A DNA stretch of 64,000 nt from a plasmid: NCBI RefSeq assembly GCF_053078305.1, contig NZ_CP166875.1; one strand, given 5' to 3'. Both the position numbers and the translations under genes were made by a program. Under the pieces are notes generated by a model. It was not told the origin of the DNA. It saw only the letters and a program-made list of their open reading frames with translations, and made no database searches. This document shows, in pieces, positions 4,828 to 52,938 of the stretch. Numbering within the stretch: position 1 is the first letter of the stretch; every line of letters begins with the position of its first letter.

Positions 4828-4835
4828 AAACACCT

Positions 4836-32897: not shown

Positions 32898-32988
32898 ATA
32901 AACAACAAGTTGCTACATTAGCTTACAGGTTAATTCACCTTGCATAAGATTAGCATATAGGTTAATGTTTATCGAAATGGGAGGTCAT

Positions 32989-33318
32989 ATGTTTAGCGTT
33001 GTTTATCACCCGGAAGCCAGGGAAGAAGCCACAGCATTACCCATAAAAATCAGGGTGAAGTTTGACCGTCTCATCAGCAAACTGGAATATGACGCCCGAT
33101 TACTGCGGGAACCGGATACAAAGCCCCTGGGGGATGGACTTTTTGAGATCCGCACGATGGGGACGGACATAGCCAGAGGCATCTGGGTATACCACAAAGG
33201 CAATACCATCATCATGCTCCGGGTTTTCATCAAGAAGTCTCAGAAAACGCCAGCAAAAGAAATCGATCTCGCCAAAAAGCGGTTAGCGGAGGTACTTAAT
33301 GAAACTGGTAAGCCATAA
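32989..33318 (+). CDS. RelE/ParE-superfamily toxin (HigB-like, toxin-first order)
   Basis: ATG at 32989 preceded by gggagg; ~109 aa; overlaps downstream HTH gene. Confidence 0.65.
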   Translation: MFSVVYHPEAREEATALPIKIRVKFDRLISKLEYDARLLREPDTKPLGDGLFEIRTMGTDIARGIWVYHKGNTIIMLRVFIKKSQKTPAKEIDLAKKRLAEVLNETGKP

Positions 33319-33580
33319 AGAACTGCATAACGAGTGGATGCAGGACGACGAATATCGCGCTGCATGGCAGGAAGAAGAACGTAAGGAGAAACTCAGGGAG
33401 TTGCTTGCAGAATGGCGTAAGCATGACAATTTGACAAAAGCGCAGGTTGCTGAACGCATGGGGGTTACTCCTCCTGTTATTTCCCGCCTGGAAAACAACA
33501 TCACTAAAGCCAGCATCGACACCCTGACTCGCTATGCCCATGCGTGCGGTATCAAAAAACCTGTTATTACGCTGTACTGA
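33299..33580 (+). CDS. HTH (XRE-type) antitoxin, HigA-like
   Basis: 93 aa with helix-turn-helix segment. Confidence 0.65.
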   Translation: MKLVSHKELHNEWMQDDEYRAAWQEEERKEKLRELLAEWRKHDNLTKAQVAERMGVTPPVISRLENNITKASIDTLTRYAHACGIKKPVITLY

Positions 33581-33768
33581 ACTCTGCTCTATGGCTGCCA
33601 GTTCTGGAGAAATCAGTAACTAAATTTTAATTAGCTACGTTATGGTAAATCTGCCTGATGTGTCGATTTCTCTGAAAGTAATTCGGCTTCTGTGGGCTGC
33701 GTTTGCCTTGTGCCACCTGAATGTAATCACTATGATTAAATATGATTAACAACTAATCGGATATACAA

Positions 33769-34047
33769 ATGAAAAACAATACCGCACAGGCAACAAAAGT
33801 AATTACCGCGCATGTGCCATTACCTATGGCTGATAAAGTCGACCAGATGGCCGCCAGACTGGAACGCTCCCGGGGCTGGGTTATCAAACAGGCACTTTCT
33901 GCATGGCTTGCCCAGGAGGAGGAGCGTAATCGCCTGACGCTGGAAGCCCTGGACGATGTGATATCCGGACAGATTATCGACCATCAGGCTGTACAGGCCT
34001 GGGCAGACAGCCTCAGTACTGACAATCCGTTACCGGTTCCACGCTGA
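33769..34047 (+). CDS. RHH/CopG-type antitoxin (ParD/RelB-like)
   Basis: 92 aa; one-base overlap with downstream toxin gene. Confidence 0.7.
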   Translation: MKNNTAQATKVITAHVPLPMADKVDQMAARLERSRGWVIKQALSAWLAQEEERNRLTLEALDDVISGQIIDHQAVQAWADSLSTDNPLPVPR

Positions 34048-34322
34048 TGGAACTGAAGTGGACCAGTAAGGCGCTTTCTGATTTGGCGCGGTTATATGAT
34101 TTTCTGGTGCTGGCCAGTAAACCTGCCGCCGCCAGAATGGTACAGTCCCTGATACAGGCACCGGTCATTCTGTTAACTCATCCACGTATGGGAGAACAGT
34201 TGTTTCAGTTTGAACCCAGGGAGGTCAGACGGATTTTTGCTGGCGAGTACGAAATCCGTTACGAACTTAATGGGCTGCGTTTGGGAAACGTACAATATTG
34301 TACGGTTGCGCTATTGCGGTAG
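34047..34322 (+). CDS. RelE/ParE-family toxin
   Basis: 91 aa with RelE/ParE-like C-terminal motifs. Confidence 0.75.
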   Translation: MELKWTSKALSDLARLYDFLVLASKPAAARMVQSLIQAPVILLTHPRMGEQLFQFEPREVRRIFAGEYEIRYELNGLRLGNVQYCTVALLR

Positions 34323-35112: not shown

Positions 35113-35529
35113 TCAAGCCCAGGGATTAATAATTGATACTCCGGTTAATTCAAAATCACCAACATTTCTGGTTACAACCGTCATCCCATGTACCAGCGCC
35201 GTTGCTGCGATCAATGCGTCTCGTTCACTGCGCCTGTCGGGAACATGTAAACGAGAACAACGTAATGCAACCGCAGTATCTACAGGAAGTATCTTATCAG
35301 AAAACGCTGGTAACACATGCTGATCCATCCAAGAACGTAGCATAATCCCTTGTCGCATATCTCGACGTTCAACTTGTAATATTCCCTGTTCAAGTTCCAT
35401 TATGGAAATAACAGAAATAAAGAAATCTGCCGCATCTGTATGCAATACCCATTTTGCAACATTATTATCTATACGTCCTGTCCGAGCCTTCCGTAGCTCA
35501 GAGATAACATTAGTATCAAGAATATACAC
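35113..35529 (-). CDS. vapC: VapC PIN-domain toxin (VagD-like)
   Basis: 138 aa, MYILDTNVISE N-terminus typical of PIN domain. Confidence 0.85.
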   Translation of the reverse strand: MYILDTNVISELRKARTGRIDNNVAKWVLHTDAADFFISVISIMELEQGILQVERRDMRQGIMLRSWMDQHVLPAFSDKILPVDTAVALRCSRLHVPDRRSERDALIAATALVHGMTVVTRNVGDFELTGVSIINPWA

Positions 35530-35783
35530 TATAAAAACTCCGCAGGTTTTAAACTAACCGTAATACGAGGCGGTTCAAATTCAACTGCATCAGCATCGGG
35601 CATCGCCAGAATGTCAATGAGAGTTCGTCGTTGTTGCGTCAATTTTCGGTATTCTTCGATACTAAGAAGTACATGTGCGGTTTTACCCCGATCAGTAATA
35701 AATACTGGACCATAATTCGTGGCGCGTTTGGCTCGAGTTACATCTTGATTAAGTTCCCGACTGGATAGGGTTGTAATCTTCAT
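35529..35783 (-). CDS. vapB: VapB antitoxin (VagC-like)
   Basis: Start at MKITTL inside ORF 35529..35843; one-base overlap with vapC. Confidence 0.8.
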   Translation of the reverse strand: MKITTLSSRELNQDVTRAKRATNYGPVFITDRGKTAHVLLSIEEYRKLTQQRRTLIDILAMPDADAVEFEPPRITVSLKPAEFL

Positions 35784-35942
35784 GCTGTTGCCTTTTGATG
35801 TATATAGGTACGTTACTACATTGTAGGGCATGAAATAGTACAATGCAAGAAATGTACTTGATTAGGGGTAGTCTTCGCCGCTTGTTGCTGTCAGATATTA
35901 ATGCTAATGTATGCATACATTAGCATTAATGAGGGATGATAT

Positions 35943-36356
35943 GTGAGAGACAAAACCAGGGAGGCCATGCGGTTTTTTTTAGGCGGCAGGTGTTACACGG
36001 CTGAAAACCTTGAAAAGGATTATCTGGCTGAAGTTGCTAATTACAGTGACGACCGCTGGGAAGCACCCCAACGCGCCGCACGTCTGGCAGCTGCCGTAAA
36101 GCGTTACAAGACATCAGAAATGCTGCGCTTTATTTTTGCTACCACTGCCTACGATCCCGATCCAGATTTAACCCCGCTGACTGTGAGACGTTTGTGCAAG
36201 GCATTGTTCGGCAGAACAGGAAGCCAGTGGCTGGTTGTTGAAGTTTTTGGGGAGAAGGGGCGTCAGCACCGCAGCGCGGACAGCAATCCGGAGATGGTGG
36301 AAAAAGGGGGTTCGCGCCCATTTCCTCTAAAAGTCTCACCTTGCTTAGGTAATTAA
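35943..36356 (+). CDS. hypothetical protein whose 3' end runs into the transposon inverted repeat
   Basis: GTG-initiated ORF; C-terminal ~16 codons are encoded by the Tn left inverted repeat. Confidence 0.25.
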   Translation: MRDKTREAMRFFLGGRCYTAENLEKDYLAEVANYSDDRWEAPQRAARLAAAVKRYKTSEMLRFIFATTAYDPDPDLTPLTVRRLCKALFGRTGSQWLVVEVFGEKGRQHRSADSNPEMVEKGGSRPFPLKVSPCLGN

Positions 36357-36362
36357 TTGAAT

Positions 36363-36944
36363 TTATTTATAAAACGTTGCAATTTTAGCATCATTTTTTA
36401 TTGTTCTTTTTAACCTGAAGTACGTCGATCGAGAGATACCTGTTTTTTCTGTCACACTGCCCAGAGATTCTCCCTGTGATATAAGCTCCAACGCTGTAGG
36501 CGTTCGTGGATGCTTCTTCCTGCCAAATTTTACGCCTGCGGCAAGTGCCGCTATTCTTCCGTCGTTTGTCCGCTCCAGAATACGCTCACGTTCCGCTTCA
36601 GCTACAGCAGCAAGGATTTGGATAACCATTTTGCCCATTGTCCCTTCTGTACTGAGACCGTTCTCCAGGAACCGGATGGCGATCCCCTTTTTGTAACAGC
36701 TATCAACCACACGAATCATGTCAGCAGTGTTACGCCCCAGTCGGTCCATTTTTGTACAGATGATTACGTCGTCTTTCTCTGCACGGGCCAACAACCGCTG
36801 TAGTCCTTCCCGTTCATCAGTTGCGCCAGTCATCATATCCGTAAAAATACGATCTTCCCGTACCCCGGCATTTTTTAGCTCCGAGATTTGATGTGTTAGC
36901 TTCTGATGACTGGTTGATACCCGTGCATACCCCAATAACGCCAT
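36363..36944 (-). CDS. tnpR: serine recombinase / resolvase
   Basis: N-terminal MALLGYARVSTSHQ catalytic motif, C-terminal HTH. Confidence 0.85.
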   Translation of the reverse strand: MALLGYARVSTSHQKLTHQISELKNAGVREDRIFTDMMTGATDEREGLQRLLARAEKDDVIICTKMDRLGRNTADMIRVVDSCYKKGIAIRFLENGLSTEGTMGKMVIQILAAVAEAERERILERTNDGRIAALAAGVKFGRKKHPRTPTALELISQGESLGSVTEKTGISRSTYFRLKRTIKNDAKIATFYK

Positions 36945-37100
36945 TTTTAGTCTCACTTATCGTTTTTGACACTGCATGGTATCATAATGTACAAAATACG
37001 ATTTTTGAAACCTGCTTTTATGCTGTTTTAGACAGGTATCAGATATCTTAATATTTGATACTAGCCATATTTAACAAATATTTAGCATTTTGGTAAATGT

Positions 37101-40100
37101 ATGCAGAAGTACAAGAAAAGAATTAGTATATTAACAAAAAGTGAAATAAATGAATTATATCAAGTCCCCTCTTTTAATCCTGTTGAAAGGGATGAGTTTT
37201 TTTCGCTGGATATCAGCCTTAAAAGAGAAATTGATAAAATAATAAATATAGAAAGCAGGGTGTATCTGATATTAATAACAGGGTATTTCAGATATAAACC
37301 TGTGATTCCTGAATTTACATTAAAAGACGTAAAAAGGGATGTGAAATATATTATCCAGACATATTATAAAAACGAAAGTACTAATCTCAATTTAAACATA
37401 CCTAAAAGTACAAAGTACCGCCTTGTTAAACGAATGCTTTCTACTCTAGGATTTGAACAACTCACCCCATCTATAAAAAATGAGTTAAGTGAACGTCTGA
37501 ATGATGTTGCTACTATATGTATGGAACCAAAATATATTTTTGATGAATTACTTGCTTTTTTAGGACAGCGGCGTATAGCTCTTCCTGGATACAGTACTGT
37601 CCAGAACCTCGTTTCAGATGCTTTAAACTTTGAAAGGAAAAGGACAATTAATATTTTGTCAAAGAGAATTTATCCTGCCACTGCACAAAAGATTACATCC
37701 ATCATCCATGATGATGGAATATTAAATTCCATCAGGGGATATAATTATAGCACGAGAGACTTCTCAGCATCAGAAATAGAAAATGAATTAAGAACTCACA
37801 ATGTGATAAGTAGTATTTACTATGAAATAAAAGATATAATTAATTCATTAGGTATATCCCAGGGAAACATGGAGTACTATGCAACTATCGTAAAACACAG
37901 TACAACATTCAGACTTAAGCGACACCCTAAATGGCAAGGAATACTTTATTTGTGCTGCTACTTGTACTTCAGATACAGAGAGATAAATGATAAAATAATC
38001 ACAGCCTTCAGATATTTAGTAAAAAAACATAAAGACGCTTCAGTTTTGTTTGCAAAAGCTCGGGCAACAGAGGAAATAGATCTAATAAATAAAAAGCTTA
38101 AGTTTGCGAGTAAAATATTTAACTTCTTCGTTGATAGTAACATTGAAGACAGCATCCCTTTTGGATATGTTCGTGAAAAGGTTTTTTCACTTATATCGAA
38201 AGATGATATGCATCTTGTGAGTGAATTTTTTGACAAAAATAAAATCGATGTAATTGAATATCAATGGCAGTATATTGACAGCCATCACCTTAAGATCGCC
38301 AATTCAATCCGAAAGCTTTTTCTGGCTATAGATATAGTATATGACAACGAGAAGTCTGTTATTGGCCAGCAAATTACTGCTGCCAAGGATGATCTCAGAG
38401 GAAAAGGAAAGCTGGATGCTAAGGATCTGAGGGTAATTCATCCATCCGAGAAAAATTACATTGTAAAAGAAGGAGAAATTAACACTCAACGATTCGAATT
38501 TCATATGTACAGCAGGGTATCTAACCATCTGGAAAACGGTGTCTTTTATGCTGCGGAGAGTGAACAAAACAAGAGACTGGAAGATGATCTCATAGAACGA
38601 AGTTACTGGCATAAGAATAAATCGATTTTGATAGAGAAAACAGGCCTTGAACGACTTATCACACCAATAACGCAGACTCTTAATGAGCTGGAGAATACCT
38701 TTAGCGATAAACTGGCTCGTATAACCATTGGAATAAACTCAGATGCTAATGAGTTTGTGAAAAAACAACCACACTCCAACAGATTACAGTGGAGTCTGGC
38801 CAGTAAAAAATGGAAGACCAGCATCGATAATCCGATTTACAATCAGATAAAAAATATCGGAATAGTTGACGTAATGAAGTATGTAAACAATGAGACGAAT
38901 TTTTTGTCTGTGTTTAATGCCATATCATCCAGGAAAAATAATCTTGAAGCTGACTATAATGACCTTCTTGCCTGTATATTTGGTAATGGCGCAAATTATG
39001 GTGTTCACAGAATGGCATCTGCATCAGACCGTAGTATTGGAATACTACGTGATGTGAATGACAAATTCATTCGTCCAGAAACAACAGGAATGGCCAACAC
39101 AGTAATATCTGATGCAATTGCAAATCTTTCTGTATATAAATACTGGACGATAAATGAAGATTCTCCATTTGGAAGTGTTGATGGGCAGAAGCACACTTGC
39201 AGAATAAATACATTTAAAGCCCGTTATTCTGCCAAGTATTTCAGAAAGGGGAAAGGGGTTTCTGCGATGACACTGGTATCTAATCATGTGCCATTATCAA
39301 CTGTGGTAATTTCTCCAAATGAATATGAAGGTCATTTTGCATTTGACTTGTTATATAACAACACCAGTGAAATACAACCAAAGTCATTAGCGACTGACAA
39401 TCATGGTATAAACAACGTTAATTTTGCGATTCTTGACATTTTTGGCTATCAGTTTTCACCACGTTATGCAAAATTCAAGAAAATATTTAATGAATTATTT
39501 GATGTTATACTGGAGAGTGATAAACTCATTATAAAACTTAAAAAACAATTTAACTTTAAGCTCATTGAACATGAATGGGAAAACATCCAACATATTATTT
39601 GTTCTTTAAGCAGAAAAACAACCATTCAAAGTACGGTTGTTAAGAAGTTATCTAATACAAAGCGTAGCAACAAGACATTAGCAGCACTTCGGGAGTATGA
39701 CCGAGTTATAAAATGCATATATGTCCTGGATTATGCTGACAATAAAACCTTAAGGCAATTTGTGCAACAAGCACTGAACAGAGGTGAAGCTTATCATCAA
39801 CTAAGAAGAGCAATAGCATCAGTAAATGGAAATCAATTTCGCGGTGGTAATGACTACCAAATAGATCAATGGAACGACTGTGCGAGGTTAATAGCTAATT
39901 GTGTAATCTATTATAATTCAGCAATATTATCCAGGCTGGTCGAGAAATTTGAAAAAGAAAATAATAAAAAAGCGATAGATGTTCTGGCTAACTTATCCCC
40001 AGTAGCATGGAGACACATTCTCCTTGGAGGGAATTATTCTTTTGAAGATCAAGTTGCGATCACAAATTTGGACAGTCTTTTGGAGGGAGTAGACCCACTA

Positions 40101-40139
40101 AGTGATATCGGAGATATTGAGTCCGAATATGACGGTTAA
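37101..40139 (+). CDS. tnpA: Tn3-family DDE transposase
   Basis: 1012 aa; N- and C-terminal regions consistent with Tn3-family TnpA; low-GC codon usage. Confidence 0.85.
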   Translation: MQKYKKRISILTKSEINELYQVPSFNPVERDEFFSLDISLKREIDKIINIESRVYLILITGYFRYKPVIPEFTLKDVKRDVKYIIQTYYKNESTNLNLNIPKSTKYRLVKRMLSTLGFEQLTPSIKNELSERLNDVATICMEPKYIFDELLAFLGQRRIALPGYSTVQNLVSDALNFERKRTINILSKRIYPATAQKITSIIHDDGILNSIRGYNYSTRDFSASEIENELRTHNVISSIYYEIKDIINSLGISQGNMEYYATIVKHSTTFRLKRHPKWQGILYLCCYLYFRYREINDKIITAFRYLVKKHKDASVLFAKARATEEIDLINKKLKFASKIFNFFVDSNIEDSIPFGYVREKVFSLISKDDMHLVSEFFDKNKIDVIEYQWQYIDSHHLKIANSIRKLFLAIDIVYDNEKSVIGQQITAAKDDLRGKGKLDAKDLRVIHPSEKNYIVKEGEINTQRFEFHMYSRVSNHLENGVFYAAESEQNKRLEDDLIERSYWHKNKSILIEKTGLERLITPITQTLNELENTFSDKLARITIGINSDANEFVKKQPHSNRLQWSLASKKWKTSIDNPIYNQIKNIGIVDVMKYVNNETNFLSVFNAISSRKNNLEADYNDLLACIFGNGANYGVHRMASASDRSIGILRDVNDKFIRPETTGMANTVISDAIANLSVYKYWTINEDSPFGSVDGQKHTCRINTFKARYSAKYFRKGKGVSAMTLVSNHVPLSTVVISPNEYEGHFAFDLLYNNTSEIQPKSLATDNHGINNVNFAILDIFGYQFSPRYAKFKKIFNELFDVILESDKLIIKLKKQFNFKLIEHEWENIQHIICSLSRKTTIQSTVVKKLSNTKRSNKTLAALREYDRVIKCIYVLDYADNKTLRQFVQQALNRGEAYHQLRRAIASVNGNQFRGGNDYQIDQWNDCARLIANCVIYYNSAILSRLVEKFEKENNKKAIDVLANLSPVAWRHILLGGNYSFEDQVAITNLDSLLEGVDPLSDIGDIESEYDG

Positions 40140-40205
40140 CAACATGATAAATAATGGTTTTTATGCTAAGAGTGAGACTTTTGGAGGAAATGGGCGCAGA
40201 ACCCC

Positions 40206-40429
40206 TGTATCTGCCGTTCGGTTTTTGCACGAAGTTTTTCTGAGCTTTTACCGAACTGCATACGTTGCAGTTTCGCAACCAGCGCCTTCAGCCGGTTGAT
40301 TTCGGAAGCATAAGCCGCCACCCGCTGTGAGAGCAGGCGGTTGTATTCAGCCATCTGGCGGATGGTGTCCTGTTGCGTCTGCAACAGTGCCCGCAGGCGG
40401 GCGTTCTCATGAGCAAGTGAGGTGTCCAT
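40206..40429 (-). pseudogene. IS66-family transposase (TnpC), N-terminal fragment only
   Basis: N-terminal coiled-coil region with GKSSEK motif; reading frame continues into the Tn inverted repeat. Confidence 0.7.
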
Positions 40430-40448
40430 ATCCTCACTTTACAACGGG

Positions 40449-40796
40449 TTATATGCGGATTCCAGCGCGTTCCGTTCGTTTCGGGTGCTTCCAGTTGATA
40501 CCTTCAAGAAGCATGGATAACTGAGCCGGAGTAAGGTGCACCTTGCCGTCACGGGTGACTGGCCAGACGAAGCGGCCCCGCTCCAGGCGTTTGGTGAAGA
40601 GGCACAGTCCGTCACTGTCAGCCCACAACACTTTTATCTGGTCACCCCGGCGTCCGCGGAAGATGAACAGGTGTCCGGAGAACGGGTCATCCTTCAGGAC
40701 GTTCTGAACTTTTGATGCCAGGCCGTTAAAGCCATTTCGCATATCGGTGATACCTGCAACCAGCCAGATACGCGAACCTGCAGGGAGAGATATCAT
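40449..40796 (-). CDS. IS66 Orf2 (TnpB)
   Basis: 115 aa, characteristic IS66 orf2 sequence. Confidence 0.8.
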   Translation of the reverse strand: MISLPAGSRIWLVAGITDMRNGFNGLASKVQNVLKDDPFSGHLFIFRGRRGDQIKVLWADSDGLCLFTKRLERGRFVWPVTRDGKVHLTPAQLSMLLEGINWKHPKRTERAGIRI

Positions 40797-41473
40797 CAGT
40801 GGCTGCTCCCTTTTATTTCGCGGATAAGTGTCTGTAATAACGCCGGCGTCAGTTTACCTTTAAGCCTGAGAGTTCCGGCCGGCAGAACCAGCTCACAACA
40901 CAGACTGTCGGACGGTGTATTTATCTGCTCTGGTTCCTGTGCGGGGGCCGGGATTTTATTATCCGGCTCCGGCGTTAACGTCACGGGAAGCAGTGCCGGC
41001 ATATTTTTTCCGGAAGGCAGCAGGCCACCTTTCCGGTATTGATGGCGCCAGTTGAAGAGCAGGTTATCGTTGATTCCGTTTTCCCGGGCGATCTGCGCCA
41101 CACAGGCTCCGGGCTGCAGTGACTGCTCCACTAAGGCGATTTTAAACTCATAAGGGAAGTTGGGCCGCCGGGGACGTTTTTTTACCACGGGGGCTTCGGA
41201 TATAACGGTGCTTTCAGGACGTACGACTGGTACCGTGGAAAATTGTCCGTAAAGGCAGGCATCAAGTTCCTGCTCCGACATGCCTGCGGGCAAAGGCCAC
41301 GAAAGGCCAGCTCTCCGAAAGCGCACGAACATACTACAAACTGTTGATTTTGGTACACCCAGGCGACGCCCGGCCACAACCCGGGGTAAATGTTCTTCAA
41401 AGTGAAGACGTAAAGCTTCAGTGATCCAGGTCCGGTGTTTCATACGATAGTGTCCATTAAAAATGATGGACAT
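40796..41473 (-). CDS. IS66-family Orf1-like accessory protein
   Basis: 225-aa ORF immediately upstream of orf2 with overlapping stop/start. Confidence 0.55.
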   Translation of the reverse strand: MSIIFNGHYRMKHRTWITEALRLHFEEHLPRVVAGRRLGVPKSTVCSMFVRFRRAGLSWPLPAGMSEQELDACLYGQFSTVPVVRPESTVISEAPVVKKRPRRPNFPYEFKIALVEQSLQPGACVAQIARENGINDNLLFNWRHQYRKGGLLPSGKNMPALLPVTLTPEPDNKIPAPAQEPEQINTPSDSLCCELVLPAGTLRLKGKLTPALLQTLIREIKGSSH

Positions 41474-41849
41474 TATTTTTGTAGAGCCGGAGGAAACAGA
41501 CCAGACGGTTTAAATGAGCCGGTTACAAACAAATTCGCTTCATAAATTTCATAGTGCAGACCACATCCCCAATGAGCCTGCTTTTCCAGCCTGCTGATCA
41601 CCACATCAGCCCGGATAACATCAAAGGGATTGCGGGAATGAATATTACGAATAAAGCCATCGGTACGTGCTGCTGACATATTTCTGCCCATCTTTAATAC
41701 ACCTCTGTTTTTTGCCCCCATCATCTGTTGAGTTTCGGGAGCCGCGGTTTTGACGTTTTGCGGGGACCTGCCTTTTGTTCCCTCCGGTATTCACCATCAC
41801 CTGTTTGAGAACCTTCGCCGCAAGGGGCATCACTGCCACGGCCGGAAAC

Positions 41850-42160
41850 GACTGTCCGGGGGCAGACCGCAAAAGTTTTTGCCTGCTTTTGGGCAAAAAG
41901 TTTTGCGGGATGTGCATTTCACCCCTGGACTGGCGGAGACGGTTGTGGCTGTCTTTGCCCCCGGCGACAGGGGCTTAAACAGGTGTATGGCACCGGACAC
42001 AACAACGGGCAGGGACCCGCCGCAACGACGAAGAGCGCGTGCGCGAAACGGCGTTGCCCCTTACATCCCGGCGGCCTTTTGCCGGGATGCCAGGAGCGCA
42101 GGCCACGGCGCGACAGAGGCGGCGCGACCGGAACGGTCGCTGCAAGCCCGGGGTTTCGCG
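41850..42160 (-). promoter_or_regulatory. Frpo/ssi-like structured single-strand promoter region, copy A
   Basis: GC-rich non-coding block sharing motifs (CTGTCCGGGGGC, GAGCGCAGGCCACGGCGCGACA, GTCGCTGCAAGCCCGG) with the region upstream of ssb. Confidence 0.5.
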
Positions 42161-42583
42161 TCAGGGATGGAAGCCCGCCAGGGCGGAGACAGCTTCGCTG
42201 GCTCCGTTCACGACAGCCCGCCCCGCCTGGGGGACGCCCGGAAAAGGCATAAGCAGGAGAACAACAAAACAGACAATAATCAGGGCAGCAGTAATCAGAG
42301 TCAGAACAGGAGGAAAAAGAGAATAATCAAAGGGAAGGTGATGTGATTTCCGACAGGTCATAAACAGAGAAGGCGGGGGAAAAGAACGGGCGCCGCAGGC
42401 GCGCGTTCATCCCCGTTCCCGGAGGGAATCGGCCTTCCTGGCAGTCTGGTTGTTCATGCTGCTGCAATGTCAGCAAGGAGAAAGGGGCCACCGGCGAACC
42501 AGCAGCCCCTTTATAAAGGCGCTTCAGTGCAGTCAGACCAGCATCAGCCCTGAAAAGGCGGGCCTGCGCCCGCCTCCAGGTTG

Positions 42584-42742
42584 CTACTTACCGGATTCGT
42601 AAGCCATGAAAGCCGCCACCTCCCTGTATCCGTCTCTGTAACGAATCTCGCACAGCGATTTTCGTGTCAGATAAGTAAATATCAACAGTGTGAGACACAC
42701 AATCAACACACACCAGACAAGAGAGCTGCGTGGTAGTTTCAT
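42584..42742 (-). CDS. hok: Hok type I toxin (flmA/hok-type)
   Basis: 52-aa peptide [52 protein letters not shown]; overlapping upstream leader ORF. Confidence 0.85.
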
Positions 42743-43016
42743 GGCCTTCTTCTCCTTGCGCAAAGCGCGGTAAGAGGCTATCCTGATGTTGTCAGACATA
42801 TGGGATGCCTCGTGGGTTAATGAAAAATTAACTACGGGGCTATCTTCTTTCTGCCACACAACACGGTAACAAACCACCTTCACGTCATGAGGCAGAAAGC
42901 CTCAAGCGCCGGGCACATCATAGCCCATATACCTGCACGCTGACCACACTCACTTTTCCTGAAAATAACCCGCTCATTCAGGCTGTTTACGGGTAATCTG
43001 TGTGATTGTTGCCGCA

Positions 43017-43736
43017 TCACGCCGCCTCCCGGAGTTTGTTCGGCACCATCCACCGCTCCATCTCACGGACAGCGTGACCCGCCTCCCTTGCTGCCATACC
43101 TGCCTCTGCGATGACCTGCCAGAATGGCATATCCTGCCACTGCCAGCGTTCCATCCCGGCCAGTGACGGAAAACGCTCACCCCACTGCCAGAACAGGGTT
43201 TCCAGGTCATGCTCTGCCACCCGGTCACTCCAGCGTGCATACCAGCTTCCGACTGTTTCCGGTGAATGGAACGCCAGTTCGATTTCAGCCTGAGCGACCA
43301 GCGTCTGGTACGCACGGGCTTTCTGCTCTGCCTCCCGTGCCTGCTGGCGGCTGTACTTCTGCATGACCAGCACGGATTTATGGCGACTGCGTTCCCTGAC
43401 ACGGAACCGCACCGACGGGAACAACCGCTCTGCTGCATCACCGGGAAGGGGAAGGAGGCAGACCTCGCCCTGTGTTTCAATCAGCACATCGACGGCATAC
43501 AGCCACTGAGAACGGTTGCCGCGCAGTTCTTCTGCGGTCAGGGACGGCATGAAAAATCGCAGGTCAGACAGCGAAATCCTGCGGCTTCCGTTCAGACAGC
43601 GGAAAAACGCCCCCGCATACGGATATTCCGCCAGCGTGTTACCCTGGTGGCGGCGTTTTTCTGTCTCCGCCACCGCCCGCCATGCGGCCTGTTGCTCTGT
43701 GCTGAGAGGAACCAGTGCCTGTGAACGTGCGCTCAT
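43017..43736 (-). CDS. psiA: PsiA
   Basis: 239 aa; position immediately after psiB as in F leading region. Confidence 0.88.
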
Positions 43737-44167
43737 GCCTGACCTCCTTCCGCCATCAGGATATGGATGATGTCACTGACGCTGTATCCCTGTTCATCCA
43801 GTGATGCCGCCAGTGCCAGTGAATGGCTGACAGCTTCCGGTGCAAACCGCCGCTGCACCTGAACCACCGCAAACGGCTCACCACCGGCATTCACCAGAAC
43901 CAGCACCCAGACCTGAGAGACATCGCCCGGTGAACATAACGCCAGGTGAAAACGTTCGTGGGCAGGCGTGAAACGGACCTGGACGGGGAAAAAGCCGCCG
44001 AACTCGCTGCCGTACTCGCCATTCATCGTCCAGTTGTCCGGCGCATCCAGTTCCCGCATCACGGCGTGTGTCAGCTCACGGCGTTCATCACTTCCGGCAG
44101 CCCGGATATCTTCATATTCCTGTGCGCTCATGGTCTGTAATACATTCAGGGTCAGTTCAGTTTTCAT
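43733..44167 (-). CDS. psiB: PsiB plasmid SOS inhibition protein
   Basis: Start at MKTELT preceded by gggaga; 144 aa. Confidence 0.9.
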
Positions 44168-44221
44168 CACGGTATCTCCCTTGCTGCCGCCCCGTCTCCG
44201 GCGGGGCGGTGTGGTTGTTCA

Positions 44222-46180
44222 TCAGGCGGCATCAGCCAGGTTATCGGCGCGTTCAGTGGCATCCGTCTGTGGACGTGGTGAACCCATCCAGCCAGGCACC
44301 CAGCGGTTGTCTTTCATGTGGAACTCTGCATGTTCAGCGGCATCGCCTTTCTTCATCTTCTCCGCGTCCCGTGCGGCACCGGACAGTCCGGCATCATTCA
44401 GGGCATCGATAATCTGCGGCTTTTTCAGGTGACCGAAGAAGTTTGCTTTTGTCGGCTGCCACCAGTCACGCATGTGAAAGCCGATGGCGCTCTCCAGCGA
44501 GTCCAGCGGACTGCGTGACGTGTGACCATACTCGCGGGTCTGAACGCCGTGGATGCTGCACGCGGTGCAGAAACTGAGCAGTGATAACAGCACGTCCTGG
44601 CTGAGTGACAGGAACGTCGTCATGTCCCGTGCCCATCCCTCCGGTAACAGGGCAGCAAGACGGGCTTTTTCTGCCATCATCGCCATGAATGCGGCACCGT
44701 CCTTCCCCGATGGCGCATCGCTGGTCAGCGAATAATGTTTACATTCCAGGCTGATTTGTGCTGGTTTACTGTACGCTCCGCTGCCAAACACATTCAGGCA
44801 GAGCGTCCATGCCAGCAGTGCCAGAGATTTGTCCGGTTGCTGCATGAGTGCCGCCTGGACTGCCAGCGTGCGTTCGGAAGACATTTTCGTCAGCAGTGGC
44901 AGACTGATTTCCTCCACTGACGCTTTCTCCTGCACCTGTTCCGTGCGGTCAGCGTCGTCAGTCACGTCATCTTCACTGCGCAACTGCACACCACGCTGGA
45001 CACACACATTACCGTAACGCCAGGACACCACCACGCCACTTCCGGCACGCATCTCCGGCGTCCACGCCCTGACCTTCGCCATGCAGTCAATCAGCTTCAT
45101 TTCTGCTGCCAGCAGGTCAGATTCCTCACACTGGTTTTCCAGCGCGTCGTAACGCATCATCAGTTCGTTCAGGCGTTCTTCTTCTGCCTCCGTCAGCACC
45201 GCTTCCGGCTCCGGCAGGTTGCGGTATGCCCGGGAATCTTCACGGCACTCACCGACAGGCTCCATGCGTCCGGCGCACCATTCCCAGCCTTCGGCTTCCC
45301 GAAGGTGTTCAGCGACAGCCTGGAGTTTTTCCAGCAGGGCGGCATCGAGCGCCACGCAGTCCACATAGCCACCCTCGTCATCGCTGAACAAATCAGTACG
45401 CAGTTCGTCAGGTGAGAAAGCATCAGCCCCCACGAAGCGGAATTTAGTGTTGTCCTTCACCGCCACTTCACTTTCCGTAATCAGATTGCGGATAACCCGC
45501 ACATCCGGTTTACCGCCCCATCCTGACTGGCAGGCCGCTTCAAACACCTGCACCTGACGCGCGGTGTCGTTCTCCAGCGCCAGCGCCTGACAGTGCTCGG
45601 TGGTGATGCGGTCTTCTGCCAGCGCATCGAGGATGACAGGCGCAAGGTCTGCCAGTTTCAGCATTCGCTGAACGTGGCGGGGCGAATAACCCAGCAAATC
45701 ACCGATTTGTGCAGGTGTTTTGCCTTCCTGCGCCATTGCACGGAATCCGGCAATCTGTTCGGCAGGGTGCATATCCCGACGATGACCGTTCTCGGTCATC
45801 GATGCGGCAGTCGCCAGCTCCTGCGGAATGACCTTCACACGGACAGGCCAGTCAACCTGAATGATGTCACGCTCTGCCAGCATGTTGAGTGCTGCCAGTC
45901 GGCGACCACCTGCGGCGACACCGTAACGGTCACCTGGCAGGGCATGAACAACCAGATTCTGTAACAGGCCGACACCTTTAATGGAGTCCGCCAGTTCGCT
46001 GACGGACTCCGCAGAATACGGCACCGTGCGCACATTCAGCGGAGACTTAATCAGCGAGGCCAGCGGCACGCTCACTTCCTCCGTCTGCGCCAGCAGGGCC
46101 GACAGGACTGTTTCCTGCGTTTTTGCAGGTTTACGGCTGGATTTACGCTCCGTTTTTGCCTTAGACTCTGTAACTGACAT
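44222..46180 (-). CDS. ParB-like nuclease-domain protein of the leading region
   Basis: Start at MSVTESKAK preceded by gggagg; 652 aa; ParB/Srx-like N-terminal region. Confidence 0.75.
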   Translation of the reverse strand: MSVTESKAKTERKSSRKPAKTQETVLSALLAQTEEVSVPLASLIKSPLNVRTVPYSAESVSELADSIKGVGLLQNLVVHALPGDRYGVAAGGRRLAALNMLAERDIIQVDWPVRVKVIPQELATAASMTENGHRRDMHPAEQIAGFRAMAQEGKTPAQIGDLLGYSPRHVQRMLKLADLAPVILDALAEDRITTEHCQALALENDTARQVQVFEAACQSGWGGKPDVRVIRNLITESEVAVKDNTKFRFVGADAFSPDELRTDLFSDDEGGYVDCVALDAALLEKLQAVAEHLREAEGWEWCAGRMEPVGECREDSRAYRNLPEPEAVLTEAEEERLNELMMRYDALENQCEESDLLAAEMKLIDCMAKVRAWTPEMRAGSGVVVSWRYGNVCVQRGVQLRSEDDVTDDADRTEQVQEKASVEEISLPLLTKMSSERTLAVQAALMQQPDKSLALLAWTLCLNVFGSGAYSKPAQISLECKHYSLTSDAPSGKDGAAFMAMMAEKARLAALLPEGWARDMTTFLSLSQDVLLSLLSFCTACSIHGVQTREYGHTSRSPLDSLESAIGFHMRDWWQPTKANFFGHLKKPQIIDALNDAGLSGAARDAEKMKKGDAAEHAEFHMKDNRWVPGWMGSPRPQTDATERADNLADAA

Positions 46181-46245
46181 AGTTAGTACCTCCCAAAACG
46201 GTAATAATGATTGTCTGCCGGACGCGTTCCCGTCCGGCACCTCTC

Positions 46246-46521
<276 letters not shown>

Positions 46522-46536
46522 TCACAGTCAGGCCAG

Positions 46537-47064
46537 TCAGAACGGGATATCGTCTGAAAATCCGTAATCCTCCCCCTCCGGCGGCTGAGGCTGAGGCTCG
46601 GGCTGCGCGGCCTTACGTCCACGGCCTTTCGTTTTCGCGCCACTTTTTTTCGTCGCGTCAGCACTCTGTGGCTGCCCATTCTGCTGAGGCTGCGGTTGTG
46701 CCTGAGCGTTCTGCTGTGGTGCAATCCCCAGCATCTGCATGGTGCCCGTGGTCTTAACAAGAATTTCAGTGACGTAACGGGTGATACCGTTATCTTCCCA
46801 GCTACGGGTTCGGAGTTGCCCCTCGATATAGACCTGCGCGCCCTTGCGCAGATATTCACCAGCCACTTCCGCGAGCTTGCCGAACAGCACCACGCGGTGC
46901 CATTCCGTCTGCTCCCGCATCTCCCCCGTCTTTTTGTCGCGCCAGCTTTCTGATGTGGCCACCTGCAGGTTTGCCACTGCGCCCCCGTTGGGGATGTAAC
47001 GGACCTCCGGATCATTGCCCAGACGCCCGACGAGGATGACCTTGTTGATACCACGTGCACTCAT
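46537..47064 (-). CDS. ssb: plasmid single-stranded DNA-binding protein
   Basis: OB-fold N-domain, Gln/Pro-rich linker and acidic C-terminal DDIPF tail. Confidence 0.92.
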
Positions 47065-47227
47065 GAGAACCTCCTGACTGAAAGATGTGAGATAAACCGG
47101 ATACCGGAGACGGGACGTTCATATGCCCCTTCAGAGGAGCGAAAGCTCCTCCTGCCGTCCACTTCTTCGGGGTTTCTCCCCGCAGTGGACCTTTCCGATG
47201 GGGGCCCGTTTACCGCCTCACGGGACA

Positions 47228-47452
47228 GCTGTCCGGGGGCGGACGCAAAATTTTTTGCCGGGTTCATGGCTAAAAATTTTGTGGCCGGTATATCTTCCCC
47301 TGGACTGATGGAACGGGAGGTGGTTACGTCTGCCCCCCGGAAAGTCCACAGCGGGAAACAGGCCGCAGAGGTGGCGGCAGAAGAGGAGCGCAGGCCACGG
47401 CGCGACAAAGGCGGCGCGACCGTTCCGGTCGCTGCAAGCCCGGGTTTTCACG
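47228..47452 (-). promoter_or_regulatory. Frpo/ssi-like structured single-strand promoter region, copy B, upstream of ssb
   Basis: Homologous to 41850..42160; non-coding, GC-rich, hairpin-rich. Confidence 0.55.
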
Positions 47453-47764
47453 CATCGGACCGTAGCGACAGCCCGAAACCGCGCCAGCGGGTTCGGCGGA
47501 GACTGGCGGGTGCGCCAGCAGTTGCCTGTCGGAGTCGGGCCTGACGACCGGATGCCGCCAGGCAGCCGGGAGCCGAAGGGGCGCATGTGTAAGAAGGTTC
47601 TTTAACGACAGGTCTGTAACAGGTACTTCCTGAAACAACGCCTGTCACCAACAGGAAGGGTAACGGGCGACGCGCCAGCGTGGCCCGCATCCCTTCCGGC
47701 AGGCGCCAGCCTGCCAGGGGTTTTCGCGCGGGCTGACAGGCGGCCTCCACCGCCTACCCCTGTA

Positions 47765-47956
47765 TCACCTGTGCCTGCTGCCCTGAAGGATGTAGTGACC
47801 ACCGAGGAAAACCGCCTGCTGATTCGCCACAAAATCACAGATTTCATCAACAATCTGCGCGGTGGTGAGCGGTTTCTGCCCCATTTCACGACGCCGCGCA
47901 TTAATCACGGCTTTGTAATTGCGCAGAATTTCGCGGGTTTCCGTGCTGATATTCAT
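47765..47956 (-). CDS. hypothetical small protein
   Basis: 63-aa ORF whose start overlaps upstream gene stop. Confidence 0.45.
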   Translation of the reverse strand: MNISTETREILRNYKAVINARRREMGQKPLTTAQIVDEICDFVANQQAVFLGGHYILQGSRHR

Positions 47957-48375
47957 TACCCGTTCTCCCCGTCCAGCGCCTGACGCATTACCCGCATAAT
48001 CTCACGTTCTTCCCTGACAAATGCGTCACCGTCGCCCCCGTTCTCGCTCCCTACAGCATGGAGGCGATAAATTTCACTACCAGCCATCACCATCACTTTT
48101 TCCAGCAGCACCGCAGGGACTGTTACAAGACGGTTTACGCGCTTTTCCTCCATCAGTTCATTGACAATATCGGAAACAACTCTGTCACATGCGCCATATA
48201 CAAAAGCATCGTCCAGCCGCTGCATGACGGTTTCCAGCTCATCGTCTGACAGGTTCCAGTCCCGGGCTATGTGGCGCACATCCCCGCGGGTCAGCACCAC
48301 GGCAAAAACACATTCACTGTCCGGCACGTCTGTATTCAGCACTTCGCGGATAATTTCTTTAACAGTACAGTACAT
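47956..48375 (-). CDS. hypothetical protein
   Basis: 139 aa; ATG preceded by aaggag. Confidence 0.55.
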   Translation of the reverse strand: MYCTVKEIIREVLNTDVPDSECVFAVVLTRGDVRHIARDWNLSDDELETVMQRLDDAFVYGACDRVVSDIVNELMEEKRVNRLVTVPAVLLEKVMVMAGSEIYRLHAVGSENGGDGDAFVREEREIMRVMRQALDGENG

Positions 48376-48421
48376 GTTCTCGTCTCCTTTACAGGGGCGG
48401 CATTGCCGCCCCGTCCGTTAA

Positions 48422-48847
48422 TCAGTCCAGTGCCGCGTAAATCGCGTTACATTCGGGGTGAAATTCGATGTGGCTCCACAACTGCGCATCGCGCATCCGG
48501 TAAAGCTGGGTCAGTCCTGCATCCCCGCTGTCGTGGTACAGCCACAACTGGCGGTTAATCACAAGGGAAGTCAGGATGATACCTGCGGCATCAGCACTCA
48601 CAGTGCGGTCAAACCAGTTTTCACCGTTGACCAGATGAAAACGGTCGCCATCCGGCATCATGTAACCGCCACCGTCCGGCAGGCGGATGAAATGCCAGAA
48701 GCCTCCCTGATATTCCGGCATCATTTTTTGCGCCAGCGCGTACACATACGCCTCGGCATACAGAAAATCGTTGCCAAACAGGTAAGGCAGAAAGGAGAGA
48801 CGGTCGCACTCTTCAACGTTCAGAGTGACAGATTTCGCATACTGCAT
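48422..48847 (-). CDS. antirestriction-family protein (ArdB/KlcA/YfjX-like)
   Basis: Start at MQYAKS inside ORF 48422..49066; motifs [20 protein letters not shown]; family assignment from memory. Confidence 0.65.
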
Positions 48848-49093
48848 GGGATTTCCTCCGTTGTTCACATATTCCGCGACACCGGGCGGTGCCGTGCCTC
48901 CAGAAAAGCCGGGCGATAAGGCGGGGATGCAAGGGCGCAAGGGAAGCCGCAGCCTGACGCACACGGCTGGCGGGAGTTGGAGGGTGAGACCGCGAAATCT
49001 GAGCGGGTGAACGACCGGAAAATCACGGCAGACGGGAAGGAGGGACCGGGTGACCGCCGCGTGCATTTTACCCTTGCATCCCCGCCAGCGTCA

Positions 49094-49864
49094 TCATTTC
49101 CGGATTTTCGCCAGTGCATCCGCCATGCTGCGGATTTCATCCCGTGCCTCCAGAACAACCTCCCGCAGAATATCCCTGTCAAACCAGCGACGGGACGGTT
49201 CATCCGGTATACGCAGCACATCACAGACCAGACCACTGGCCAGGATATGCTCCACACACTCACAGACCAGGTACATTTCCACCGCCGAAAAACGGGCGCC
49301 ACGGTTCAGAATGGCATCGAGCACCACGGGCAGATTTTCGTCATCTTCATCAAGCCAGCAGGGGTAATCGCTTTCCTTCACGACCAGACGAAAGCGGCGC
49401 GTCTGGCGGGTCAGCAACGTCTGACCGGTGGTGGTCAGCGCCGCCCGGATACGCCGCGTATCTTCTGCCACCTGGTAACAGATGCTTCGTACTGCATTGC
49501 GCACCGCATCAAGAACTGCCCTGATTTCTTCCTCCGTCAGCCATTCACCGGCATACGGGAAAGACACCTGCGTTCCGTCTGCCGGAAGTACCGGCAGCGC
49601 CTGCCACTGGCTGCCGGACAGAACAAGTTCCGCTCCGGTTCCGGTCAGTTTCTGAATGGCGGAGGCCAGGTGCGGCGGCAGTACGCCATCATGGCGGCTG
49701 ATAAGTAACGTCGCCAGCCGGGATATATCCAGTCGCACATAAATGCTGATCCAGCCCGGATAGTGCGGATTCAGTTGTTCAATATCCGTCTCTTCCGGCC
49801 AGCCCTGCGCCAGCAGCAGGTTACGGGCGTGGCGACAAACCAGTGCATTCAGCGTTTTGTTCAT
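49094..49864 (-). CDS. hypothetical protein
   Basis: Start at MNKTLN preceded by ggaga; 256 aa. Confidence 0.55.
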
Positions 49865-49908
49865 GATTAATGGTCTCCCTGAATCGCCGCCCGAAGGCGG
49901 CGATAACA

Positions 49909-50343
49909 TCAGTCGTTTTCGTGTGTGTTGTTTTTCAGCAGGGCGCGGGCCTGATTAACCACCGCCTGACGGCGGGTGACGCATTCCGGGACGACGAGGC
50001 CGTTATCACGGGCGTCCCACTCACGTTTCCACAGTGCCTGTTCGGCGGTCTGAATCAGGGACGCCAGCAGTTCAGCCGGGACGGTCACCTGGCGGTTTTC
50101 GCTCACGTTGCTGATAATCTCCATCGCCACGCCGGAAGAAATACCGGACTCAGTCCGCTGGTCTTCCGGGATGTCCTCCAGGCGCACCAGGACGGTCCTG
50201 ATTTCATGATCGGACAGGGAAATATCCATTCCGTCAGCGAGGGCCTGAATCTCTTCCGGGGACCAGACAACCAGCATCAACGGCGTGTCTCCCGGATACT
50301 TTACTGCCAGCGCCCGGCAGAGCGTTTCGCATGTTCCGTACAT
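49909..50343 (-). CDS. hypothetical protein
   Basis: Start at MYGTCE preceded by gaggggag; 144 aa. Confidence 0.55.
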
Positions 50344-50354
50344 ACTCTCTCCCC

Positions 50355-50576
50355 TCAATCTTTGAAGCAGGAATCCAGTTCCAGAATTTCGGTATATGCC
50401 TCCATCAGGAGGCGGTTTGCGCGAAACAGCGTCTGACGCACCAGACGTTCCGGCAGGGTGTCAGCATTAAAGCTGTACCGCCGCTCCATCTCATTCATGG
50501 TTGTACGCAGGTCGCACATGGCATTGGCCACCTCCGCCACTTCGGCGCGAAGGTTTTCATGTCCGGCATAGTTCAT
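50355..50576 (-). CDS. hypothetical small protein
   Basis: 73-aa ORF adjacent to methyltransferase stop. Confidence 0.45.
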   Translation of the reverse strand: MNYAGHENLRAEVAEVANAMCDLRTTMNEMERRYSFNADTLPERLVRQTLFRANRLLMEAYTEILELDSCFKD

Positions 50577-51260
50577 TTACGCAGCCTCCGGCATAAACCA
50601 GTCATCATTTGCGGCCCCCTGCTGCATGGCCCGCTGTACGGCAGCCAGACGTTGCTGTCCGGCACGGTGATACTGCTCAAGCAGCTCGATACCGATATAC
50701 CGGCGTCCGGACTGGAGGGCGGCGACGCAGGTTGAGCCGCTGCCTGCAAACGGGTCCAGCACAATCGCGTTCGGATGTGTGAAGCTCTCAATCAGTGGTT
50801 GCAGGCTGGTAACGGGCTTTTCCGTCGGGTGATGGCGGTTGCCCGAATATTTCCAGCCCAGCACATCCGGCAGCGGGTTACGGGGCCGGGCCGGACTGCC
50901 CTTTGCCAGGATGTAAGCGCATTCGTGGCGGTACGCGACATACACAGATTTGGATGTGTAGTTTTTGGTGAAGACCAGGTGCCCAACCACGCTGAATCCG
51001 GCGCGTTTCCAGGCCGCCATAAAGCGGTCAATACGGTGCCAGCCGTAGAAGCTGACCATCAGCGCGTCTTTTTTGAGTACGCGGTACATCTCATTGCTGG
51101 CAGGTTGCAGCCAGTCATCATTAACGTCACCGGCAATGGTGCGCCCGGAACGGTCACGGAAACCGACGAGATATGGCGGATCGGTTAATATGAAATCAAT
51201 GGCGTTATCAGGAATCGTGGCCATAACACGCACGCAGTCACCCAGGATAAAACGGGACAT
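50577..51260 (-). CDS. orphan DNA N6-adenine methyltransferase
   Basis: Start at MSRFILGDC preceded by aaggag; DPPY catalytic motif; no restriction endonuclease partner seen nearby. Confidence 0.8.
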   Translation of the reverse strand: MSRFILGDCVRVMATIPDNAIDFILTDPPYLVGFRDRSGRTIAGDVNDDWLQPASNEMYRVLKKDALMVSFYGWHRIDRFMAAWKRAGFSVVGHLVFTKNYTSKSVYVAYRHECAYILAKGSPARPRNPLPDVLGWKYSGNRHHPTEKPVTSLQPLIESFTHPNAIVLDPFAGSGSTCVAALQSGRRYIGIELLEQYHRAGQQRLAAVQRAMQQGAANDDWFMPEAA

Positions 51261-52922: not shown

Positions 52923-52938
52923 CTGTATATACATACAG
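52923..52938. promoter_or_regulatory. LexA (SOS) box CTGTATATACATACAG upstream of impC
   Basis: Matches CTGT-N8-ACAG consensus; sits ~25 bp upstream of impC start. Confidence 0.65.

Follow-up and report, generated by a model that had tools for sequence, protein, structure and literature searches.

A complete cryptic Tn3-family transposon without a target-site duplication, and the probable loss of adjacent DNA, on an IncF plasmid

Introduction

Transposons of the Tn3 family move by replicative (paste-and-copy) transposition, for which the transposase TnpA binds both terminal repeats of about 38 bp, and insertion normally duplicates 5 bp of an AT-rich target. Target immunity generally disfavours transposition into a replicon already carrying the element. 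The gamma-delta-type serine resolvase TnpR acts at the res site to resolve cointegrates and is a probable repressor of tnpR and tnpA. Tn5403 and other cryptic members of the family carry tnpA and tnpR only and have no passenger genes. Tn5403 is mentioned as an active plasmid-borne element (PMC5142620). In derivatives of Tn1331, stepwise deletions adjacent to a Tn3-family element have removed the target-site duplications (TSDs); these derivatives arose by intramolecular transposition, in the cis pathway (He et al. 2016, PMC5142620).

We describe here a transposon found in a 64,000-nucleotide (64-kb) stretch of plasmid DNA (NZ_CP166875.1, assembly GCF_053078305.1), hereafter called the window. 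The element is an ordinary, intact member of the Tn3 family on an IncF plasmid and shows no departure from the textbook biology of the family.

Results

Extent and ends of the element

Positions 36306–40205 (plus strand) hold a complete cryptic Tn3-family transposon of 3900 bp, apparently functional, organized as IRL-tnpR-res-tnpA-IRR. The pair of inverted repeats was located at 36300–36339 and 40172–40211. The left repeat (IRL, 36306–36343, plus strand) begins GGGGGTTCGCGCCCATTTCCTCTAAAAGTCTCAC and reads GGGGGTTCGCGCCC; the right repeat (IRR, 40168–40205, minus strand) begins GGGGTTCTGCGCCCATTTCCTCCAAAAGTCTCAC in reverse complement and reads GGGGTTCTGCGCCC. Aligned without gaps, the two are identical at 30 of 34 positions, or at 31 of 38. 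The repeat core has two matches in the 64-kb window, against none expected in shuffled sequence, and no further copy is present. A preliminary description of this DNA gave repeats of about 40 bp from position 36307; the pair is indeed there, but the left end lies at 36306, and IRL starts GGGGGTTC (GGGGG). A length of about 38 bp and a GGGG terminus are typical of Tn3-family repeats, and the ends are identical in all the other copies.

The element contains no third gene, in agreement with the earlier view of a 3.9-kb unit with tnpR and tnpA only; just 57 bp and 66 bp remain at its two ends, which leaves no room for a passenger gene. The same architecture is described for Tn5403. The AT-richness, previously described from codon usage as foreign to the backbone, is mainly that of tnpA (34.5% GC; GC3 31%); tnpR, with 46.7% GC (GC3 44%), is not strongly AT-rich; the GC content of the backbone is 51.6% and the GC3 of traI is 66%.

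The transposase and the resolvase

The gene tnpA (37101–40139, plus strand) encodes a Tn3-family DDE transposase of 1012 aa. The protein matches NF033527 with 604.9 bits (cut-off 500) over profile positions 3–954 of 954, and it also matches PF13700 and the full length of PF01526 (1–389 of 389). Its size of about 1000 aa, the DUF4158 region at its N terminus and its DDE domain of the Tn3 type are features of a Tn3-family transposase. Its DDE triad is intact: D694, D766 and E896 align to D679, D751 and E881, the catalytic residues of Tn4430 (PMC9579193).

The gene tnpR (36363–36944, minus strand) encodes a serine resolvase of 193 aa (PF00239, E 7e-38). It aligns without gaps over 178 aa to the gamma-delta resolvase (1GDT; E 3e-51, 49.4% identity) and keeps the catalytic residues Y6, R8, S10, R68 and R71. 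The Tn3 transposase, the gamma-delta-type resolvase, the GGGG-ended repeats and the 5-bp duplications of other copies (see below) bear out the assignment to a minimal Tn3-family transposon.

The predicted res site

Six GTNTCA hexamers lie within 156 bp, against 0.29 expected, a number reached in none of 20 000 shuffles. They form three inverted pairs of half-sites in a predicted res of 114 bp between tnpR and tnpA (36949–37062, no strand assigned), with site III at 36950–36972, site II at 36979–37011 and site I, adjoining tnpA, at 37036–37061. The spacing is 25-4-35-22-28, counting one flanking base on each side; in gamma-delta res, read from plasmid F, it is 25-5-34-22-28. The predicted sites are kept in three further records (L008, L011 and L012). 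We infer that TnpR binds at this predicted res, and a serine resolvase and a three-part res of this kind would together form the resolution module characteristic of the Tn3 family. The possibility that recombination took place in the middle of site I was considered and rejected: homology with plasmids that carry only tnpR and res (L011 and L012) breaks at 37062/37063, the outer edge of site I, and a res crossover at that break is not demonstrated.

Relationship to known elements

The likeness to Tn3 and gamma-delta (Tn1000) extends to the divergent tnpR and tnpA with res between them, the GGGG-ended terminal repeats of about 38 bp, the 5-bp TSDs, and a res with three sub-sites of the same order, sizes and spacing and the same total length. 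The differences lie in the half-site hexamer, which is GTNTCA here and TGTCYR in gamma-delta, in an extra gene that gamma-delta has and this element lacks, and in tnpA, which is far more AT-rich here. Despite its gamma-delta-type TnpR and res, the element falls outside the Tn3/gamma-delta subgroup by its TnpA, which is only 24% identical to that of gamma-delta, in an alignment confined to the C-terminal 418 residues.

Among the plasmid matches listed, the best named transposase is that of IS3000 (PGAP label ‘Tn3-like element IS3000 family transposase’), with a pairwise identity of 33.5% over 99% of TnpA, which is far too low for naming at the family level. All close copies among these matches are labelled just ‘Tn3 family transposase’, and none of the records listed carries the specific PGAP label ‘Tn3-like element Tn5403 family’. 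A literature search by RefSeq protein accessions and inverted-repeat sequences returned no name for the element. ISYps3 was dropped as a possible identity after comparison by description: it is described as 7.3 kb long, with 34-bp repeats, and carries another IS.

Other copies and their target sites

Copies with the same ends and 99.4–100% identity occur in records of Escherichia coli, Escherichia albertii and Salmonella. Nine of them are bounded, precisely at the element ends, by perfect 5-bp direct repeats (L003, AACAT; L004, TATTA; L008, TTATT; and L021–L026), and a tenth (L020) has a 6-bp repeat. These TSDs in independent copies prove the ends of the element. They also show the 5-bp duplication typical of the family, which the window copy lacks. 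A TSD is likewise absent from eight other full-length copies (L002, L005, L006, L007, L010, L019, L027 and L028) and from a 630-bp derivative of the element in pAA. At the loci examined, about half of the plasmid-borne copies have no TSD, and the copies among chromosomal-type genes keep theirs.

The exact TnpA is found in 594 blocks of public assemblies, corresponding to hundreds of assemblies, under generic annotation. For this distribution 23 contigs were read, of which 10 are shown, and at the loci shown the neighbours are chromosomal-type or plasmid genes. The element therefore looks active. Two strains, FHI_NMBU_11 and E. albertii RM9973, carry copies on two plasmids.

Flanks and junctions of the window copy

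The window copy is flanked by AAAAA on the left and TGTAT on the right, which do not match, and shifting either boundary by 1 bp gives no duplication; the reported absence of a 5-bp duplication is thus correct. On the left, the transposon end cuts a hypothetical plasmid gene, of which the 5′ part (35943–36305, plus strand) is left, 121 of 160 codons. This flank is unrelated to IS66, as first described. The position of the cut was read by comparing the translation with the intact protein of L001 (3069–3551); the open frame continues for 16 codons into IRL. The segment 35876–36305 is 95.6% identical to 3001–3431 of L001.

On the right lies a truncated ISCro1-like element of the IS66 family (40206–41526, minus strand), assigned by NF038385 (295.8 bits), NF033819 (128.9 bits) and a DNA identity of 99.85–100% to ISCro1 copies. 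Of the tnpA-tnpB-tnpC operon that the family carries between terminal repeats, it comprises an accessory tnpA (40796–41473), tnpB (40449–40796) and a 5′ remnant of tnpC (40206–40429). The remnant has 224 nt, or 74 codons plus 2 nt, close to the roughly 75 codons initially estimated. The terminal repeat beside the accessory tnpA is kept, but the opposite one is lost, together with most of tnpC. Deprived of a transposase gene and of this second repeat, this ISCro1 copy is immobile on its own; both genes flanking the transposon are dead.

The left junction recurs, with 99.7% identity, on an independent draft contig (L029), which carries the 137-aa open reading frame of the left fusion and ends inside the element. 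No record of the 87-aa fusion of TnpC′ with IRR was found, a 26-nt string spanning the right junction has no exact match among species-representative genomes, and the two junctions together occur in no plasmid or complete E. coli genome. The right junction being in no other record searched, and the element being multi-copy in some strains, one may ask whether assembly has collapsed or mis-joined two genuine copies with separate TSDs across the 3.9-kb repeat. Such an artefact is very improbable given the independent left junction and the frequency of TSD-less copies in finished plasmids.

Two apparent similarities at the junctions were set aside. The flank of L010 (plasmid A of E. coli C5) seemed to share ISCro1 through an 8-bp BLAST extension past IRR, which proved to be coincidental and contains mismatches (TGGATATG against TGTATCTG). 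An insertion site shared with pAA was suggested by a left-flank match of 6 bp, GAAAAA, which is too short.

Probable loss of DNA beside the element

In the plasmids pWS3294A_133 and pE7476_162 (L001 and L015), both breakpoints lie on one backbone segment, 3.5 kb apart. Homology of the left flank to L001 extends as far as position 3431. The BLAST match of the right flank starts at 6941, and its true start is 6943, the first two bases coinciding with the terminus of IRR. Between the breakpoints the related plasmids complete the hypothetical gene with its 3′ end and carry a ProQ/FinO gene together with the remainder of ISCro1, including most of tnpC. This 3.5 kb, and with it the missing IS66 portion, is absent from the 64-kb window, in which there is a single copy of the transposon. 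The proposal that deletion or recombination took place next to the element after insertion is thereby supported.

An inversion would delete nothing: trans-pathway intramolecular transposition, or recombination between inverted copies, would leave a second copy with reciprocal flanks beyond the window. The visible part of the replicon is 64 kb, and in pFHI_NMBU_11_01 the right end of a near-identical copy borders on this hypothetical gene in inverted orientation, so inversions around the element do occur. At this locus an inversion is nevertheless quite unlikely, since the breakpoints in L001 and L015 face each other as a simple deletion predicts and the missing 3.5 kb is nowhere in the window.

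Discussion

The missing 5-bp duplication is best explained by later deletion or recombination of the DNA adjoining the element. We regard a transposon-adjacent deletion by a single intramolecular replicative transposition as the probable history, with modest confidence. The first insertion would have been in either the tnpC gene of ISCro1 or the neighbouring hypothetical gene. The element was previously said to be cut into IS66; its right end does lie in ISCro1 tnpC, but a first insertion in the hypothetical gene, with the IS reached by later deletion, fits equally well. One transposon end would then have become linked to the second site of this plasmid, most likely in the cis pathway. Such an event would excise the intervening DNA as a circle, leaving a single transposon where the deletion closed and eliminating one copy of the original duplication. 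By comparison with the related plasmids, about 3.5 kb would have been lost: the 3′ end of the hypothetical gene, the ProQ/FinO gene and most of ISCro1 tnpC. The size of this loss is a model and not a measurement, because the comparators diverge: the left flank of L001/L015-type plasmids is only 95.6% identical, and beyond the far end of their ISCro1 the neighbour is a different one. Since searches of plasmids, complete E. coli genomes, species-representative genomes and protein records revealed no progenitor copy having a TSD at one or the other site, we infer both the sequence of events and their completion in a single step. Target immunity counts somewhat against the intramolecular route.

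The same arrangement, a Tn3-family element between truncated genes with the TSD gone, is seen in the Tn1331 derivatives. The transposon is another one, and stepwise intermediates were observed there and not here.

Recombination between two copies is a possible, though less likely, origin of the mismatched flanks. A copy in the hypothetical gene and another in ISCro1 tnpC, directly oriented and each bounded by a separate TSD, could have recombined into a single hybrid copy, either through TnpR at res or through RecA anywhere in the 3.9 kb; on one plasmid the result would be a deletion, and between two replicons a fusion followed by later loss. The predicted outcome is identical to the one observed, copies on two plasmids of one strain do exist, and the contrast between plasmid-borne and chromosomal-type copies in the retention of TSDs is in its favour. 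However, the element would have had to insert twice, independently, within about 3.5 kb, which Tn3-family target immunity normally opposes, and no intermediate was found.

Beyond the deletion that we favour for this plasmid, a wider reading is unlikely: that the element represents an unnamed, spreading cryptic lineage of the Tn3 family in Escherichia and Salmonella, in which a gamma-delta-type IR-tnpR-res was fused to a distant AT-rich tnpA, the seam being the outer edge of res site I. If it were true, the high share of TSD-less plasmid copies would mean that the element is unusually active in generating deletions and rearrangements of IncF virulence plasmids, perhaps because of weak target immunity.

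The significance of these results beyond annotation is little. They fix the precise ends of a cryptic transposon that is common but carries generic annotation, at 3900 bp with an IRL starting GGGGG, predict a res site for it, and explain the truncation of two neighbours, the hypothetical gene and ISCro1 tnpC, on this plasmid. Virulence and resistance plasmids of the IncF group are remodelled by elements of this kind, which can also fuse replicons, and correct boundaries therefore aid the reconstruction of plasmid history.

Limits of the transposon

A single long inverted pair surrounds the reported span (36300–36339 and 40172–40211; repeat finder, 85% complementary), and the 64 kb window contains just two copies of its core, GCGCCCATTTCCTCYAAAAGTC, against zero copies expected from shuffles. 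Megablast against plasmids retrieved near-identical copies (99.4–100%) from E. coli, E. albertii and Salmonella, together with an 87 per cent relative from Citrobacter; in all of these the match starts at query position 105–108 and ends at 4006–4011. When the junctions were extracted, every close copy was found to begin with five or six Gs and to finish with ...GCGCAGAACCCC. The left-end string is GGGGGTTCGCGCCC in all of them except record L007, which has GGGGGGTCGCGCCC.

Perfect 5 bp direct repeats (AACAT, TATTA and TTATT) flank three copies if the start is placed at the first of five Gs. Ten further loci encoding exactly the same TnpA were fetched for reading of the target-site duplication (TSD); six carry 5 bp repeats (GAATA, TATCT, AGATA, TATTT, TTATT and GTATA) and one, L020 (5200–9111), has the 6 bp repeat AAAAGA instead. 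Because direct repeats abut exactly these ends in other copies, the element comprises 36306–40205 (3900 bp). The preliminary description, a 3.9 kb unit delimited by inverted repeats at 36307–40205, was thus accurate apart from its left end, which lies one base earlier. The left (IRL) and right (IRR) repeats are identical at 30 of 34 or 31 of 38 positions, ungapped. The resolvase half-site hexamer GTCTCA is present inside both (36333–36338 and 40173–40178), which could be chance or a contact of TnpR at the ends.

Genes and predicted res site

Two divergent open reading frames lie between the repeats: tnpR (193 aa; 36363–36944, minus strand) and tnpA (1012 aa; 37101–40139, plus strand), the two genes that had been described. 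Only 57 and 66 bp remain outside them at the element ends, so that no passenger gene fits. TnpA scores 604.9 bits against the NCBIfam Tn3 transposase model (cut-off 500) and contains a DUF4158 domain and a full-length DDE_Tnp_Tn3 domain; its residues D694, D766 and E896 align with D679, D751 and E881, the catalytic triad of the solved Tn4430 transposase (PMC9579193). TnpR is 49.4 per cent identical to gamma-delta resolvase over 178 residues without gaps (E = 3e-51), and Y6, R8, S10, R68 and R71 are kept.

The 156 bp tnpR–tnpA intergenic region contains six GTNTCA motifs forming three inverted pairs (36950–36972, 36979–37011 and 37036–37061), the predicted res sub-sites; 0.29 copies are expected from a composition-matched shuffle, and none of 20 000 shuffles reached six. 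With one flanking base added per side, predicted sites and spacers measure 25-4-35-22-28 (114 bp in total), compared with 25-5-34-22-28 in the gamma-delta res from plasmid F, and in both the 28 bp site adjoins tnpA. The predicted sites are kept in relatives of 87–89% identity. Judging from this arrangement, TnpR would bind there, with a crossover point near 37048–37050.

Composition and possible modular origin

The element had been called AT-rich and foreign to the plasmid. This is strongly true of tnpA alone (GC 34.5%, GC3 31%) and not of tnpR (GC 46.7%, GC3 44%); the window outside the element has 51.6 per cent GC, and traI a GC3 of 66 per cent. Whereas TnpR and res are of gamma-delta type, TnpA has different relatives: it is 24 per cent identical to gamma-delta TnpA, over the last 418 residues only, and 33.5 per cent identical over its full length to IS3000-type transposases, the best named among the matches listed. 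Closer relatives of TnpA (55–80% identical) occur in Yersinia, Providencia, Aeromonas, Vibrio, Shewanella and Xenorhabdus, which fits a low-GC origin.

The IRL–tnpR–res half (to 37062) is found alone, at 88–89% identity, in Hafnia, Serratia and Citrobacter plasmids, and the tnpA half (from approx. 37063–37069) alone, at 85 per cent, in Salmonella plasmids. As homology breaks at the outer edge of res site I, assembly from separate modules is plausible on sequence grounds; the break is not at the site centre and thus does not mark a res crossover there. In the Tn3 family, hybrids with their join at res site I have been described (PMC7157771).

Flanking genes and missing duplication

The right flank (40206–41526) is 99.85–100% identical to copies of ISCro1, of the IS66 family. 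It keeps complete tnpA (225 aa) and tnpB (115 aa) genes, and the IS end beside tnpA lies at 41526; it lacks its opposite end as well as about 1.35 kb of tnpC. The 224 nt of tnpC that remain (74 codons plus 2 nt, close to the 75 codons first estimated) run on into IRR. The left flank, correctly described as unrelated to IS66, is an interrupted hypothetical plasmid gene: the reading frame at 35943–36356 consists of the first 121 of its 160 codons and 16 codons from IRL. The outer five bases are AAAAA on the left and TGTAT on the right, and 1 bp shifts of either boundary produce no direct repeat, in agreement with the reported lack of a duplication.

A perfect 34 bp palindrome (ATTAATGCTAATGTATG / CATACATTAGCATTAAT; 35897–35930) lies just upstream of the truncated gene and is shared by three related plasmids (L001, L015 and L016). 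Directly to the left of this gene is a PIN (VapC-like) and Phd-like toxin–antitoxin pair (35113–35843, minus strand), with more type II TA-like pairs at 32965–34322; in none of the related E. coli plasmids that were examined does this segment adjoin the hypothetical gene.

Proposed rearrangement

Plasmids pWS3294A_133 (L001) and pE7476_162 (L015) carry, in order, the hypothetical gene, a ProQ/FinO gene, a partial gene and ISCro1, whose tnpC faces the hypothetical gene. The match of the window's left flank stops at L001 position 3431 and that of the right flank restarts at 6943 (6941 by BLAST, two bases overlapping the IRR terminus); the transposon therefore stands in for about 3.5 kb of such backbone. 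This segment, including the missing IS66 portion, was not found anywhere in the 64 kb window, which holds one copy of the transposon. The adjacent deletion or recombination after insertion proposed initially fits these breakpoints and is a reasonable reading.

The simplest account is that the transposon would have inserted at one of the two sites, and that a cis-type intramolecular replicative transposition would then have deleted the DNA up to the new target, taking away one copy of the original duplication in the same event. Stepwise cis-type adjacent deletions removing the duplication are documented for Tn1331 derivatives (PMC5142620). Recombination between two direct copies of the transposon gives the same product; an inversion, with a second copy beyond the window, is a less likely alternative. 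A progenitor was not found among plasmids and complete E. coli genomes, nor, for the right-junction string, among species-representative genomes; the comparator backbones are only 95.6 per cent identical to the left flank, and the far-side neighbour of their ISCro1 copy differs from that in the window. For these reasons, both the figure of about 3.5 kb for the loss and the order of events are inferences.

An independent record, a draft contig (GCA_026420205.1; 99.7% over 6.5 kb), confirms the left junction and stops 111 bp into the element. For the right junction, a 26 nt string sought in species-representative genomes gave no independent second record. When the window is compared with pWS3294A_133, the ISCro1 end and the umuC fragment are separated by about 13 kb of IncF leading region (psiA, a ParB-like gene, ssb, a methylase gene and umuC; 41530–54747). 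Even the best E. coli plasmid matches share only about 94–95% identity with this backbone, which makes the plasmid a somewhat divergent member of the IncF group.

Other copies and derivatives

The exact TnpA sequence is present in 594 blocks of public assemblies; at the ten loci shown, its neighbours are chromosomal-type or plasmid genes. Among 19 full-length copies examined, the window copy included, a TSD is present in 10 and absent in nine (the window, L002, L005, L006, L007, L010, L019, L027 and L028). The L002 copy (NZ_CP045713.1, pFHI_NMBU_11_01; 3003–7092) differs from ours by one nucleotide; its right end is joined to the same hypothetical gene elsewhere (window 36042; segment 35853–36042, inverted) and its left end adjoins a truncated yacA, another rearranged context without TSD. 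In L019 (4929–9105), the first 277 bp, IRL included, are tandemly duplicated directly before the full copy, with an unrelated Tn3-family element upstream.

Plasmid pAA-EA11 of E. coli O104:H4 (L009, 3007–3636) carries an internally deleted 630 bp derivative without TSD, in which IRL and most of tnpR (window 36306–36898) are joined directly to the 42 bp at the right end, IRR among them; several pAA-type plasmids share this structure. A 126 bp left-end remnant lies between the autotransporter gene eatA and an intact ISCro1 on the ETEC plasmid p504838_88 (L014, 4001–4126). Mixta mediterraneensis (contigs L017 and L018) is the only species-representative genome matching the right-end repeat string exactly, and its copies are partial and 82–87% identical.

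No close copy has an annotation more specific than 'Tn3 family transposase' and 'recombinase family protein', and literature searches by protein accessions or inverted-repeat sequences found no published name. Judged from annotation and literature, the element is, as far as testable, an unnamed member of the Tn3 family. The transposon itself is cryptic and ordinary for that family, and the DNA next to it has been rearranged.
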